This document shows, piece by piece, positions 7,594 to 25,258 of a DNA stretch of 64,000 nt. A program made the translations under genes and the position numbers. Numbering within the stretch: the first letter of the stretch is position 1; each line of letters begins with the position of its first letter. Origin of the DNA: an uncultured Candidatus Saccharibacteria bacterium (GTDB lineage: Bacteria > Patescibacteriota > Saccharimonadia > Saccharimonadales > JAGQNJ01); NCBI GenBank assembly GCA_965231045.1, contig OZ246406.1, positions 514,208 to 578,207 on the forward strand, given 5' to 3'. The notes beneath the pieces were generated by a model. The model was given only the letters and a program-made list of their open reading frames with translations, made no database searches and was not told where the DNA came from.

Positions 7594-7644
7594 TGGAACT
7601 CTGAGCAGGATAATCGCACTTTAGTTATAACCTAGCCCCATTAA

Positions 7645-7672
7645 CAATGAGCCAAGGGGATTTGGCTCATTG
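7645..7672 (+). terminator. Stem-loop after the L,D-transpeptidase gene (no clear T-tract)
   Basis: CAATGAGCCAA-ggggat-TTGGCTCATTG, an 11-bp perfect stem about 50 nt after the stop codon. Confidence 0.35.
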
Positions 7673-7680
7673 CAAGGAGC

Positions 7681-7736
7681 AAAACTAAAGACCTCGCCCG
7701 ATTTTGGCAACCAGGTGGCCAAAATTGATGCGAGGT
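7681..7736 (-). terminator. Long hairpin plus T-rich tract downstream (minus orientation) of tRNA-linked element A
   Basis: The minus strand reads ACCTCGC..TTTTGGC-loop-GCCAAAA..GCGAGGT followed by CTTTAGTTTTGC. Confidence 0.45.
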
Positions 7737-7753
7737 TGTAATTATTTGCGACG

Positions 7754-7863
7754 TGGTACCCCGGGCAGGATTCGACTCACCTCCAGCGAGCCCGAAACTT
7801 CGTGATTGAAAACAAGTTTTCATCAGAAGGTTTCCTTGCGAACTGCCACCGGCAGTTCTCACC
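7754..7863 (-). ncRNA. Candidate structured RNA, copy A: an 88-nt conserved module ending in an exact copy of the 3' terminal 22 nt (with CCA) of tRNA-Arg
   Basis: 7754-7775 is identical to 7942-7963. 7776-7863 aligns to 18142-18230 with 75 of 89 columns identical in my hand alignment. The hairpins are conserved and show compensatory changes. Strand is inferred from tRNA orientation and flanking terminators. Confidence 0.5.
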
Positions 7864-7905
7864 ACGACCTTTAAGGTTCCCGAATCGAACCTTCACACAC
7901 TACAA

Positions 7906-7941
7906 TCCTCCACACTTTGCCAAAAGGCAAACAATGGAGGA
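7906..7941 (-). terminator. Hairpin abutting the CCA end of tRNA-Arg
   Basis: TCCTCCA..TTTGCC-AAAA-GGCAAA..TGGAGGA (plus-strand reading). On the minus strand it is followed by TTGTAGTGTGTG, a weak T-tract. Confidence 0.4.
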
Positions 7942-8018
7942 TGGTACCCCGGGCAGGATTCGAACCCGCGACCTTGACGTTAGAACCGTCTTGCTCTATC
8001 CAGCTGAGCTACCGGGGC
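7942..8018 (-). tRNA. tRNA-Arg (anticodon TCT), CCA encoded
   Basis: 77-nt cloverleaf: GCCCCGG TA GCTC AGCTGGATA GAGC A AGACG GTTCTAA CGTCA AGGTC GCGGG TTCGAAT CCTGC CCGGGGT A CCA. Confidence 0.9.
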
Positions 8019-8093: not shown

Positions 8094-8153
8094 TTGAACA
8101 CTGGGGAGGCTAGCGTATTTGCCACGCTTGCGACACCCGCATTGAACTACTAG

Positions 8154-18090: not shown

Positions 18091-18113
18091 AAAAAAGACC
18101 CGAAAAGGGTCTT
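18091..18113 (-). terminator. Intrinsic terminator immediately after tRNA-linked element B
   Basis: The minus strand reads AAGACCC-TTTTC-GGGTCTT followed by a T run (TTTTTTGG). No plus-strand gene is nearby to use it. Confidence 0.6.
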
Positions 18114-18120
18114 CTTTGGT

Positions 18121-18230
18121 TGGTCGGGGTGAAAGGACTCGGTCACCTCCGGCGACCCCGAAACTTCGTCTTTGAAAACAAGTTTTCAAGAGAAGATTTC
18201 CTTGCGGATTGCCATCAGGCAATCCTCACC
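18121..18230 (-). ncRNA. Candidate structured RNA, copy B: an 89-nt conserved module ending in an exact copy of the 3' terminal 21 nt (with CCA) of tRNA-Pro
   Basis: 18121-18141 is identical to 18301-18321. 18142-18230 is homologous to 7776-7863. It is bracketed by a promoter-like TTGGTT-17-TTAGAT and an intrinsic terminator, both on the minus strand. Confidence 0.5.
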
Positions 18231-18237
18231 TTCGCCC

Positions 18238-18266
18238 ATCTAAGCTCGATACATCGCTCAAACCAA
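18238..18266 (-). promoter_or_regulatory. Putative promoter for element B (TTGGTT-17 nt-TTAGAT)
   Basis: -35 lies at 18261-18266 and -10 at 18238-18243 (minus-strand reading). The predicted start falls within a few nt of the first conserved base of the element (18230). Confidence 0.35.
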
Positions 18267-18268
18267 CT

Positions 18269-18291
18269 AAAAAACCGGAGACAAGCTCCGG
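18269..18291 (-). terminator. Intrinsic terminator of tRNA-Pro
   Basis: The minus strand reads CCGGAG-CTTGT-CTCCGG followed by TTTTTTAG, beginning about 10 nt after the tRNA CCA end. Confidence 0.65.
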
Positions 18292-18300
18292 CATTTTAGT

Positions 18301-18377
18301 TGGTCGGGGTGAAAGGACTCGAACCTTCGACCTCACGGTCCCAAACCGCGCGCGCTAGCCAACTGCGCCACACCCCG
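18301..18377 (-). tRNA. tRNA-Pro (anticodon TGG), CCA encoded
   Basis: 77-nt cloverleaf: CGGGGTG TG GCGC AGTTGGCTA GCGC G CGCGG TTTGGGA CCGTG AGGTC GAAGG TTCGAGT CCTTT CACCCCG A CCA. The C1-G72 pair is typical of bacterial tRNA-Pro. Confidence 0.9.
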
Positions 18378-18483
18378 ATTGTATGAGACAAACCTACGGT
18401 TTTTCTCATCGCTCGGTCAGCTAAGCTGAGTTTTCCAAAAGCAAACCAAGCCTCGCTGCTCTTTTCCCTAAATGACCATTAAG

Positions 18484-18499
18484 AACAGGGGAGATTATA
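18484..18499 (-). promoter_or_regulatory. Putative tRNA-Pro promoter -10 (TATAAT-CT-CCCCTGTT)
   Basis: The minus strand reads AACACTTTTCAGTTATAATCTCCCCTGTTC. This implies a leader of about 110 nt before the tRNA. Confidence 0.35.
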
Positions 18500-22798: not shown

Positions 22799-25258
22799 TT
22801 ACTTTGTATTTTTTTGTATTACTGTTTTTCGGACTAATCCTAATGAACCAGCCAGCAATAGAAGTATTGCCAGCAAATAGAGTGGCTTTGTATCCTCACC
22901 GGTCGATGCCAAAGTAGAGCTACTCGTCCCAGAAGAAGTAGACGCGTTAGCAGTAGCTAGGCCAATTGGGTCAACTATTGTTCCGTTGGCAACCCCATCC
23001 TGATCTAAAGATCCCCCGTCCGTAATTGAGTAGGTTAGCTGTAGAGCGTGGTGACCGCTAGCTGATGTTTCTGTAAGCGTGTAACTTGGTATGGTGCTAT
23101 AGCCATGTGTAGTGCTGTTATATTTTCGTGGAGTAACCTGTGATGGCGTAAGATCAGTTACAAAAGTTAAGGATACTTGGTTAGTGGAACCATTGCTAAC
23201 TGAAAAACAGAAATTCACAACACCTAGGGGATAGCTGTAATTAGAGTCTTGGCTGGATAGGCTAGATGCCGACACAGAGTTTGCACAAGTTATATCAGTG
23301 CTATTTGGCACTGATAGAGTGACATTAGCTGGACTGCCTGTAACTGGAGCATTGTTGAAAGTATAGCTAGTTGTAGAAGGATAGGTGAATTTCTGGATCC
23401 TAGAGTTATTACTTTCATTTGTATATAACTGCCCAAACCTATCAATATGCACCCCATTTACAAAAAAGAATTGCCCATTTGCTCGGCCAAAAGAGCCCCA
23501 TTTAGTTATGAAATTACCACTGGAGTCGAATTTTTGAATACGGTTATTAGAGGAGTCAGCCACATATAGATTATTCAATACATCCATGGAAATACCACCG
23601 GCTCCATTAAATTGTCCGTCGCCAGATCCAAAAGAGCCCCATTTAGTTATGAAATTACCACTGGAGTCGAATTTTTGGATACGGTTATTGTCTGATACAT
23701 ATACGTTATTGTAGGAATCTATAGCCAACCCACCAATGGTTGAAAATTGGCCGTCGCCAGATCCAAAAGAGCCCCACTTAGTTATGAAATTACCACTAGA
23801 GTCGAATTTTTGGATACGATAGTTATAGTAATCAACAATGTAAATATTATTGCTAGAATCAGAAGCAACATAAGATGGTAAATTAAACTGGCCGTCGCCC
23901 GCACCAGCTGTTCCCCACTTAGTTATGAAATTACCGTTACTGTCGAATTTTTGGATACGGTTATTATTAGTTTCATTAACATAGATGTAATCGTTCGAGT
24001 CAACTGTGACACTATTTGGATAATCAAATTGGCCGTCGCCCGCACCAGTTGTTCCCCAATGCATAAGATGAACACCATTTTTGTCGAATTTTTGGATACG
24101 GTTATTATTACTATCTGGAGCATAAATATTGCCTAGTGAATCAGTCCCCAGTTCTGCGATACCACTTATCGAGTCTTCAGGCAAGGTAATAGTATTAAAC
24201 TGCGACTGGTAAGTTCCGGATGTGTTAAATTTTTGAACTCGCGAATTGCTTGGCGGCGCTTGATCAGCGACATATACATTATTAGAGCTATCAATAGCAA
24301 CACCAACTGCATAGGTAAATTGTCCGTTGCCTGTTCCGTATGAACCCCATTGTGACGTGTATACGCCACTATTGGTAAATTTCTGGATTCTTTTATTACC
24401 ACTTGAGCCAGAGTTACCGGTATCAGACACATACACATTATTTGAGCTGTCCAAAGCAATACCCGTAGGGTTAGTAAATTGTCCGTTACCAGTGCCTGAC
24501 GAGCCCCATTTAGTAATGTAGTTACCACTTGAGTCGAATTTTTGTACACGCTTATTTCCCTTCTCAGCAACATATATATTACCGGATGAATCGAAGGCAA
24601 TTCCCTGTGGATTATTAAACTGGCCATTGCCAGATCCAAAAGTTCCCCATTTAGTTATGAAATTACCACTGGAGTCGAATTTTTGGATACGGTTAGACGA
24701 ATCTGAAATATAAACATTCCCGCTAGAATCAACAGCAAGCCCTCTTGGGGTATTGAGTTGACCATCTGAAAAGCCATACGAACTCCACTCACCTAGAAAA
24801 GTGCCGGAATTTGAAAATACGCTTACTGGCGACTGAACATCATAGGCGTTACACCCATCAGCAATGTACACATTCCCGTTTGATTGATTGACAGCAATTG
24901 GAAATAGTGACGGAGGATTTCCTCCACAGGTAACATAGAAAAACCATTCCTTTACATATGCGCCACTTGAGTTATATTTAACAACTCGATTATTAGAGTA
25001 GTCCAAAACAAATACATTCCCACTGGCATCTGTAGCAATGCCTTGTGCAGTGCTTAGTGTCGATGGAATTGCCGCAAAACTCCCGGTAAAACTCCCGACT
25101 GTATTGGAGTAGCTTGGTACATCAGTTGACCCAGGAATTGAGGCATAAGCGTTTCTTATTGGAATCAAAGATAGAAGTAGAATAAATCCAAAACTAGCTA
25201 AACTGAAAAGCCAAGGTCTAAAATAACTAATCTTTTTGTTTCCCAAAACCTTATACAC
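22799..25258 (-). CDS. Large NHL-repeat (beta-propeller) surface protein with a LASTG cell-wall sorting signal
   Basis: 819 aa with a signal peptide and about 18-20 repeats of the ..NRIQKFDSSGNFITKWGS.G.G.GQF..P.G.A.DS.GN.YV.D.. type. The C-terminus is TLASTGEDTKPLYLLAILLLLAGSLGLVRKTVIQKNTK. Confidence 0.85.
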   Translation of the reverse strand: MYKVLGNKKISYFRPWLFSLASFGFILLLSLIPIRNAYASIPGSTDVPSYSNTVGSFTGSFAAIPSTLSTAQGIATDASGNVFVLDYSNNRVVKYNSSGAYVKEWFFYVTCGGNPPSLFPIAVNQSNGNVYIADGCNAYDVQSPVSVFSNSGTFLGEWSSYGFSDGQLNTPRGLAVDSSGNVYISDSSNRIQKFDSSGNFITKWGTFGSGNGQFNNPQGIAFDSSGNIYVAEKGNKRVQKFDSSGNYITKWGSSGTGNGQFTNPTGIALDSSNNVYVSDTGNSGSSGNKRIQKFTNSGVYTSQWGSYGTGNGQFTYAVGVAIDSSNNVYVADQAPPSNSRVQKFNTSGTYQSQFNTITLPEDSISGIAELGTDSLGNIYAPDSNNNRIQKFDKNGVHLMHWGTTGAGDGQFDYPNSVTVDSNDYIYVNETNNNRIQKFDSNGNFITKWGTAGAGDGQFNLPSYVASDSSNNIYIVDYYNYRIQKFDSSGNFITKWGSFGSGDGQFSTIGGLAIDSYNNVYVSDNNRIQKFDSSGNFITKWGSFGSGDGQFNGAGGISMDVLNNLYVADSSNNRIQKFDSSGNFITKWGSFGRANGQFFFVNGVHIDRFGQLYTNESNNSRIQKFTYPSTTSYTFNNAPVTGSPANVTLSVPNSTDITCANSVSASSLSSQDSNYSYPLGVVNFCFSVSNGSTNQVSLTFVTDLTPSQVTPRKYNSTTHGYSTIPSYTLTETSASGHHALQLTYSITDGGSLDQDGVANGTIVDPIGLATANASTSSGTSSSTLASTGEDTKPLYLLAILLLLAGSLGLVRKTVIQKNTK
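23487..24710 (-). repeat. Near-identical in-frame DNA repeats inside the NHL gene (periods 135-141 bp)
   Basis: The 62-nt stretch 23487-23548 recurs at 23628-23689 with one mismatch. Related copies begin near 23763, 23898 and 24638. Confidence 0.8.

Follow-up and report, generated by a model that had tools for sequence, protein, structure and literature searches.

Two copies of a structured module of 86 to 87 nt, here called M, were found beside tRNA genes in a 64,000-nt stretch of DNA from an uncultured Candidatus Saccharibacteria bacterium (contig OZ246406.1, positions 514,208 to 578,207). This whole stretch is referred to below as the window, and coordinates count from its first base. Copy A follows tRNA-Arg(TCT), copy B follows tRNA-Pro(TGG), and each is trailed by a second copy of the 3' end of its own tRNA. 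Comparison with related genomes points, on balance, to M being a non-autonomous, structure-dependent mobile element, of which those composite insertions that restore the tRNA gene persist and spread. This explanation is built on the established anatomy of the composites, the existence of a family, its fold and strand bias, the pattern of its targets, the pairs of empty and occupied orthologous sites, and a terminator that is not native to the occupied site.

The intact working tRNA-Arg(TCT) gene occupies 7942..8018 on the minus strand (ARAGORN; Rfam tRNA, 58.4 bits). Its last 22 nt (7942-7963, minus strand) form the left copy of a direct repeat, identified by exact repeat comparison. Directly 3' of this rebuilt end, on the same strand, folding gave a terminator-like hairpin, UCCUCCA...UGGAGGA (7906..7941). 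A second hairpin, AAGGUUC-GAUUCGG-GAACCUU (7873..7893, minus strand), was recognised from the fold and from comparison of composites as the T-arm region copied in inverted orientation and since decayed; in younger composites the corresponding piece can be read clearly as tRNA positions ~41-64 in reverse complement. It is followed on the minus strand by a direct pseudo-copy of the variable loop and T-stem 5' strand (7862..7872; AAAGGUCGUGG, where the tRNA has CAAGGUCGCGGG), and then by M copy A (7776..7861; 86 nt, UGAG...GUGAG), which comprises hairpins H1, H2 (with a CUUG loop) and H3 and scores 103.7 bits with a covariance model. The right copy of the repeat, 7754..7775 on the minus strand, is the displaced original tRNA-Arg 3' end from T-loop position 55 to CCA, identical to 7942-7963 at 22/22 positions. 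The sequence after this displaced end is unrelated to that after the intact tRNA-Arg, and includes a long hairpin with a U-rich tail (7693..7736, minus strand; terminator-like site 7710-7694), which is probably the native tRNA-Arg terminator, by analogy with the flank of locus L020 described below.

Copy B has the same arrangement. The intact working tRNA-Pro(TGG) gene lies at 18301..18377 on the minus strand (ARAGORN; Rfam), its last 21 nt being the left repeat. It is followed, again on the minus strand, by an intrinsic terminator (18266..18300; GCCGGAGCUUGUCUCCGG then a U run, from the fold and a terminator-site scan), a second hairpin with a direct pseudo-copy of the T-stem 5' strand (18229..18263; GGGCGAAGG, from the fold and composite comparison), M copy B (18142..18228; 87 nt, 103.9 bits), and the displaced original tRNA-Pro 3' end from T-loop position 56 to CCA (18121..18141), identical to 18301-18321. 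With flanking bases, this repeat extends to 27 nt at 96% identity. The terminator-site scan and the sequence gave a further hairpin and U run after the displaced end (18095..18113), probably the native tRNA-Pro terminator.

The two modules align over 72 nt without gaps at 88% identity, and 75 of 92 aligned columns are identical. Both window copies fold into the terminator-like hairpin, the second hairpin and the three M hairpins, the last closed by the leftover T-stem, with fold z-scores of -3.3 and -4.7. A preliminary description of this DNA had already reported the exact tRNA-Arg repeat, the tRNA-Pro 3' end beside copy B, the homology of the two modules, the hairpin directly after tRNA-Arg, two compensatory pairs between the copies in hairpin 1, and an invariant CUUG-loop hairpin inside a GAAAYCUUC/GAAGUUUC helix, and our analysis agrees on all of these. 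One element of the anatomy changes the picture: the ~12 nt before M are also tRNA-derived (variable loop and T-stem 5' strand), so M interrupts the T-loop of a partial tRNA copy, and the idea of a tRNA-end cap does not hold. In neither window copy does the stretch from the terminator-like hairpin to M contain a promoter-like site.

A pattern matching both window copies has a chance expectation of 0.00 in the window. A single pattern scan of species-representative genomes gave at least 118 stretches, nearly all from Saccharibacteria, each of up to 8 kb and labelled L001 onward; the locus counts given below rest on this set. Among the 123 pattern matches examined, two were false positives, which failed the covariance model too. 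With this model, built from 95 distinct copies of M, at least ~135 strong matches were obtained in the listed loci, from ~100 Saccharibacteria assemblies, so that the two-member family of the preliminary description has many further members; in these loci M adjoins tRNAs of at least 15 isotypes. Over the 64 kb of the window the model finds exactly two matches, each scoring 104 bits on the minus strand, with plus-strand scores of 11-18 bits. Genuine copies (78-110 bits) also stand on contigs of metagenome-assembled genomes labelled Limnocylindria (L058), Gemmatimonadaceae (L081) and Parcubacteria (L009), likely mis-binned Saccharibacteria contigs or loose labels. Viral contigs yielded no true copy with two patterns, the single match being false.

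The preliminary description could not match the element to tmRNA, SRP RNA, 6S RNA, RNase P RNA or a known riboswitch, and M matches no Rfam family: Rfam 15 at gathering score returned only tRNAs for the whole window, and at E values up to 10 the two M copies gave, besides tRNAs, only chance-level matches to eukaryotic families. All-against-all clustering of open reading frames (ORFs) found no protein family recurring beside M in the 118 listed loci, and an integrase, which the preliminary description had suggested looking for between the direct repeats in relatives, was likewise absent from them. Recurrence was limited to housekeeping neighbours and to spurious ORFs overlapping M. Any enzyme must therefore act in trans. 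The overlapping ORFs, of 74-141 aa, lie across M or its antisense strand (e.g. window 7641-7865, minus strand, and L057 2318-2744); they recur only because M recurs, and are likely to be spurious "hypothetical proteins" in annotations. Literature searches found no published description of these composites.

Read on the tRNA strand, the M consensus begins with (GG)GUGAG, followed by H1 (AACUGCC NGU GGCAGUU) and GCAAGG. H2 has the consensus GAAAY CUUC nnn UGAAAA CUUG UUUUCA nnnn GAAG UUUC, and H3, GGGGUCGC GRA CGUGACC, forms the 3' end. Across the 95 sequences, 96.9% of cells are paired; sliding the partners by 1-3 columns lowers this share to 33-53%. Double-sided changes occur in 18 of 32 pairs and compensatory cells number 429, values reached by none of 500 shuffles; eight H2 pairs are invariant only because the search pattern fixed them. 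RNAalifold independently predicted the same three hairpins. Columns 85-94 hold a G.U pair in 81 of 95 members and columns 81-98 in 37, and these conserved G.U pairs indicate that the fold exists on the tRNA strand only. Conservation extends to the single-stranded motifs GGUGAG and GCAAGG and to the CUUG loop. The ends of M, 5' (G)UGAG and 3' GUGAC, are not terminal inverted repeats. The module of L104 (~7745-7800, module orientation) lacks H1, and a displaced tRNA-Leu anticodon arm stands there, as if that hairpin substituted for H1.

No column of M covaries with any flanking position, and no guide-like pairing was found, including pairing with the tRNA cap. The preliminary description had proposed that a CGGG(C/G) block pairs with the tRNA-specific cap. 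Across the 95 members this block makes up the 5' side of the H3 hairpin, and the base that varies in it pairs with M's own 3' end (columns 82-97: GC in 57, CG in 34), and the proposed cap pairing accordingly falls. A loop sequence held to resemble the complement of the 16S tail, GGAGGUGA, occurs in only 4 of 95 members, so that its likeness to a ribosome-binding site or 16S tail is accidental.

A same-strand tRNA lies within 120 nt of M in 79 of the 123 pattern matches, and in none does a predicted tRNA overlap M. Two mirror layouts were distinguished, and M is nearly always on the strand of the tRNA. The downstream type (n=45, both window copies included) has a gap of 21-89 nt between tRNA and M (median 76 nt), and consists of the intact tRNA, the terminator hairpin, the reverse complement of positions ~41-64, a few bases, a direct copy of positions ~41-54, M, and positions 55/56 to CCA. 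A counterpart of the hairpin at 7906..7941 is present in most of these composites and at none of the empty orthologous sites. The upstream type (n=34) consists of the native promoter, tRNA positions 1 to p, M, 8-10 nt more of tRNA sequence, a reverse complement running across the insertion point without M, a spacer with a TATAAT-like box, and the intact tRNA; p, the last position before M, falls within the T-loop, anticodon loop or D-arm. The composite unit is ~170 bp, too short for a gene, and the tRNA duplications, ~20 to 66 nt long, extend in every case as far as the end of the gene. Removal of M regenerated a tRNA in none of the 123 instances, with 154 boundary combinations tried for each.

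The 5' junction of M follows a G-run (GGGG, GAGG or AGAG; also GGG, AGG or GAG), and (U)C opens the 3' flank. Relative to the intact gene, ~2 bases are replaced, for example GGGG|GU|UCGA or GAGGG|UU|CGA. The same junction rule fits insertions in the anticodon loop, the D-arm, other copies of M and other hairpins, and a target test of the kind applicable to the miniature IS200/IS605 derivatives known as PATEs showed the pattern to be looser than a fixed motif. Hairpins other than tRNAs hold M in L016, L044, L050 and L078 (5' flank ...CCUACAGAGGGU) and in L019 and L091 (GGAGGG^...^CCCCUCC); these hosts are apparently conserved intergenic elements and match no Rfam family.

Movement of M is indicated by orthologous sites in different states of occupation. 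At tRNA-Pro(GGG), with the same flanking genes, M stands upstream in L003, L024, L037 and L116, and downstream in L020 and L075. The flank after the displaced fragment in L020, into the start codon of the next gene, matches the flank directly after the unoccupied tRNA in L003, L037 and L024, while the terminator after the rebuilt L020 tRNA has no counterpart at the empty sites. The flank match and the non-native terminator together imply that the replacement end, the terminator, the inverted and direct pieces and M arrived together inside the old T-loop. For copy A, empty sites are provided by tRNA-Arg(TCT) without M in L008, L012 and L048. At tRNA-Pro(TGG), L009 and L035 hold a related composite, L008 has another kind of insert and L012 has only a truncated M; copy B is therefore old, and copies decay.

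Copies of M also behave as independent units. One nested in the third hairpin of another M is a simple insertion of ~93 nt without duplication; a single displaced tRNA copy can hold two M, whole units stand in tandem in L014 and L039, and M lies antisense to tRNA-Phe and tRNA-Gly(CCC) (L066, L062), after a G-run on the other strand. Within a genome, M copies at different tRNAs reach 98.8% (L033/L038) and 94.1% (L051/L059) identity, compared with a between-genome mean of 78.5% and a 95th percentile of 88%. In a comparison of orthologous pairs that looked for purifying selection on M in place, the mean identity of M was 0.81, close to the family background of 0.785, with spacers at 0.56-0.83. 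The displaced copy comes from another tRNA lineage than the adjacent working gene in L003, L024 and L075, and these mismatches suggest that composites are transferred or recombined between genomes.

Duplicated tRNA ends are not confined to M. Within the fetched loci, 70 of 164 tRNAs have a copy of their own last 18 nt within ~300 nt downstream (39 with M, 31 with diverged or unrelated inserts), and ~40 of 164 have a 5' copy upstream; the sample is biased in that loci were chosen for containing M, while neighbouring tRNAs were not so chosen. The nearest 3'-end duplicate lies at least 116 nt from its tRNA, so that an insert is always present, and none of the 70 duplicated tRNAs has a duplicate without one. 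Other insert families include one that shares hairpin H1 and one with a CACGCRCAG...CGAGCAUG hairpin. Inserts other than M occupy the same slot, in the order tRNA, terminator, inverted T-arm copy, insert and displaced 3' end, in L072 (3361-3490) and L006 (3571-3760), as well as in L062 (downstream of tRNA-Asp), L007 (6634-6960), L094, L064, L069, L010, L032, L114 and L034; one of these same-slot inserts is only ~25 nt.

A mechanism can be proposed on this basis. M, as an element confined to Saccharibacteria, would be recognised as a folded single strand and would enter hairpin loops on their 5' side, immediately behind a G-run, whether the T-loop, anticodon loop or D-arm of a tRNA, its own third hairpin or others. 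In a dispensable target the result would be a simple insertion of M. In single-copy tRNA genes the insertions observed are all composites that restore the gene. There, an insertion would survive only if it were coupled to a spare gene end, accompanied by a terminator where the 3' side is rebuilt or by a promoter-like spacer where the 5' side is; the lethality of simple insertions in tRNA genes would then account for the composite form. The interval around copy A is one composite insertion of ~170 bp in the tRNA-Arg gene, with the last 22 nt of the present tRNA as the replacement end, M in place of ~2 T-loop bases, and the displaced original 3' end leading into native downstream DNA. M would most likely be moved by a trans-acting enzyme, for which a hairpin-binding single-strand DNA transposase or recombinase is favoured. 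Composites would be long-lived and could spread between homologous tRNA genes by recombination, with the tRNA sequence as homology, or by natural transformation.

Several observations weigh against mobility as the explanation. M has neither terminal inverted repeats nor fixed target duplications, both the mobilising enzyme and an excised or circular form are hypothetical, and no presence/absence polymorphism was seen among strains carrying the same flanking proteins, all of whose contigs are identical to the window and break at the repeats. In 23 of 38 cases the displaced 3' end is kept without a single change while the pieces around it have decayed, and an M-free inverted copy of the target stands beside M at every tRNA-associated copy. 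This constant inverted copy, together with the lack of an insert-free duplicate among the 70 tRNAs, makes composite formation look coupled to insertion in a way that is not derivable from known transposition chemistry. The structure of M, its conserved G.U pair and its conserved unpaired motifs fit an RNA function equally well, and the age of some composites, which are shared between species (copy B with L009 and L035), leaves room for maintenance by host selection.

Several models of the composite were considered. If a small circle recombined into the tRNA segment, both layouts would result on paper and the variable crossover points would be explained, but the origin of such a circle would not. 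A "safe harbour", in which a spare tRNA fragment came first and M later, was discarded on the absence of an insert-free duplicate among 70 tRNAs, and the idea that the terminator came from native DNA duplicated by folding back was discarded on the empty orthologous sites, which are without that terminator. A role of the inverted piece as acceptor-stem partner of the displaced end does not fit its acceptor part, which is non-homologous even in young copies. A folded single-strand attachment site was weakened by the finding that the inverted piece is a closer match to the real tRNA than to the neighbouring direct copy.

The main rival to a mobile element is a functional RNA: M would be a host-beneficial structured RNA, either a cis element in a pre-tRNA leader or trailer or a small RNA released by tRNA processing, and its flanks would be processing or stability signals. 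The strong covariation, the conserved G.U pair and the motifs GGUGAG, GCAAGG and CUUG loop are what such an RNA would be expected to have, and its near-constant place on the tRNA strand, the position of upstream-type M between the native promoter and the tRNA, the long life of some composites, shared between species, and the displaced 3' end kept perfectly in 23 of 38 cases can be read in the same way. However, the downstream-type copies, both window copies included, lie behind a terminator-like hairpin with no promoter-like site, and M falls in opposite transcript contexts in the two layouts. Related genomes differ in how many copies they have and where these stand, nested, tandem, truncated and antisense copies exist, unrelated inserts take the same slot at other tRNAs, and no Rfam family matches. 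We give this rival a small but appreciable chance. A quite unlikely alternative is that M is an intron-like RNA, reverse-spliced into structured RNAs and then fixed in DNA, with the partial tRNA copies as exons. Simple insertion without target duplication, twintron-like nesting, conserved ends (5' GUGAG, 3' GUGAC), structure on the sense strand only and insertion at tRNA loops would agree with it, and group I introns have been reported in tRNA genes of Patescibacteria, a phylum unusually rich in tRNA introns (PMC13011429). Yet removal of M restores a tRNA in 0 of 123 instances, the host tRNA copies are truncated, some copies are antisense to tRNA, and at 86 nt M is far below any self-splicing ribozyme core; no group I or II Rfam model matched at E up to 10, and no group II introns are reported in Patescibacteria (PMC13011429).

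The preliminary description had offered two readings of its own. According to one, the element was a miniature remnant of an integrative element targeting tRNA 3' ends. The att-like repeats, the replacement end and the native flank after the displaced copy support the integrative part of this proposal, whereas the word remnant conflicts with the fixed size, the 0 of 70 duplicates without insert, lone insertion of M, the mirror 5' form and the lack of a linked integrase. A related explanation would make the composites the two ends of larger integrase-bearing islands or prophages at the tRNA 3' end whose interior was lost. Direct repeats of the tRNA 3' segment do start in the T-loop like classical tRNA attachment sites, and the element-borne copy does restore the tRNA. 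Nevertheless, the unit is small and fixed across the 45 downstream-type cases, a mirror form exists on the 5' side, M inserts alone elsewhere, neither an integrase nor any other recurrent gene was found in the 118 listed loci, and viral contigs gave no matches, so that we regard such an origin as very unlikely. The other reading, a new family of small RNAs mimicking tRNA ends, drew on the structured body and on a 3' end identical to that of the tRNA including CCA, and is now barely credible. The acceptor 3' strand has no 5' partner, the supposed cap pairing is an internal hairpin, the tRNA end is the displaced original, in the upstream type only 8-10 nt of tRNA sequence come after M, without a CCA end, ARAGORN and Rfam made no tRNA-like or tmRNA-like call, and there is no promoter-like site.

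With M taken as a mobile element, it is possible, though short of probable, that M, the H1-sharing family and the CACGCRCAG...CGAGCAUG family represent a new class of structure-guided mobile elements which colonise a large share of Saccharibacteria tRNA genes. Insertion in such a class would itself create the spare gene end, equipped with a terminator or promoter of its own, and leave an inverted, insert-free copy of the target, by a new folded-single-strand chemistry that is not a variant of integrase or insertion-sequence transposition. That the mechanism behind M insertion is itself new has likewise a substantial, though less than even, chance. If the sample is roughly representative, tRNA loci would be a major site of mobile DNA in these ~1-Mb symbiont genomes. 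The composites would exemplify how a selfish insert can occupy a gene that is both essential and single-copy in a minimal genome, by bringing along a replacement end and expression signals, and the elements offer a handle for finding the enzyme that recognises folded tRNA-gene DNA. There are practical consequences as well, in broken assemblies, spurious ORF calls and tRNA-like fragments that can confuse annotation and attachment-site prediction. In public assemblies of the same strain (L120-L123, L125-L128), short-read contigs identical to the window end in or next to M and the tRNA-end repeats, indicating that these elements fragment assemblies.

Further features were noted in the window and the listed loci. 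On the minus strand upstream of tRNA-Gly(TCC), ~47 nt separate a TATAAT-like box from the tRNA start (8094-8141), and this segment begins with GCGGGUGU, resembling the first 8 nt of tRNA-Gly(TCC). Upstream-type M is found at tRNA-Gly(TCC) in the relatives L012 and L073, and the segment may be the scar of a former composite. The tRNA-Pro leader (18378-18490, minus strand) is unusually long, ~110 nt from the TATAAT-like box, and contains a hairpin (AUGAGAAAAACCGUAGGUUUGUCUCAU). In 23406-24695 a 141-nt unit is repeated in tandem at least seven times, with 60-72% identity and conserved sub-blocks; the array probably encodes a repeat-domain protein. Two known RNAs lie a few hundred bases from M on the opposite strand, namely a group I intron (75 bits; L115 4421-4677, plus strand) and a lysM-TM7 RNA (88 bits; L019 5587-5735, minus strand).

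M shares features with several known systems. The introns in Patescibacteria tRNA genes are also structured insertions, in the same phylum and at loop positions including non-canonical ones. Those introns splice from functional genes to give tRNA, whereas the copy interrupted by M is truncated, has an intact copy beside it, and contains no ribozyme core. Rickettsia palindromic elements and similar repeats are, like M, short, structured and gene-less, and are tolerated by a reduced genome inside or beside its essential genes; they stay within the functional gene product, while M is kept out of the working tRNA by duplication of the gene end. Unlike MITEs (miniature inverted-repeat transposable elements), M has ends that are not inverted, nested insertions without target duplication and tRNA duplications of variable length (~20-66 nt). 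It differs from tmRNA and tRNA-like small RNAs in having no acceptor stem formed from its 5' and 3' ends, consistent with the negative ARAGORN and Rfam results. In folded single-strand sites such as integron attC and the CTX-phage attP recombined by XerCD, a resemblance can be seen in that the inverted and direct copies could fold as a target-imitating duplex with the extra sequence bulged, that integration seems hard to reverse, and that tandem arrays occur; this likeness is purely structural.

The tRNA-targeting integrative elements, which include tyrosine-integrase prophages, islands, CIMEs and mobilizable islands, also begin their insertion in the T-loop or anticodon loop, supply a tRNA segment that keeps the gene intact, and displace the original to the far end as a direct repeat, followed by the native flank (L020 compared with L003, L037 and L024). 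In contrast, the M unit is ~170 bp and gene-less with no linked integrase, its mirror form rebuilds the 5' end with a promoter-like spacer, an inverted target copy lies inside the unit, M also inserts alone without a repeat, and at least 15 isotypes are targeted by one family. IS200/IS605 elements with their PATE derivatives, and REP/RAYT systems, resemble M in being small, gene-less and multi-copy, in having conserved hairpins near the ends that fold on one strand (H1 and H3 in M), in inserting by a short motif without target duplication, as nested M copies do, and in depending on a trans-acting enzyme, as M presumably would. The hairpins of M abut its ends, whereas those of IS200/IS605 and PATEs lie 10-20 nt inside; its target is a G-run at a hairpin loop instead of a fixed tetra- or pentanucleotide, it replaces ~2 target bases, and its tRNA insertions have rebuilt gene ends. 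M lacks defining features of each of these two groups; it comes closest in logic to the tRNA-targeting integrative elements, and in its own properties to the hairpin-dependent derivatives of single-strand transposons.

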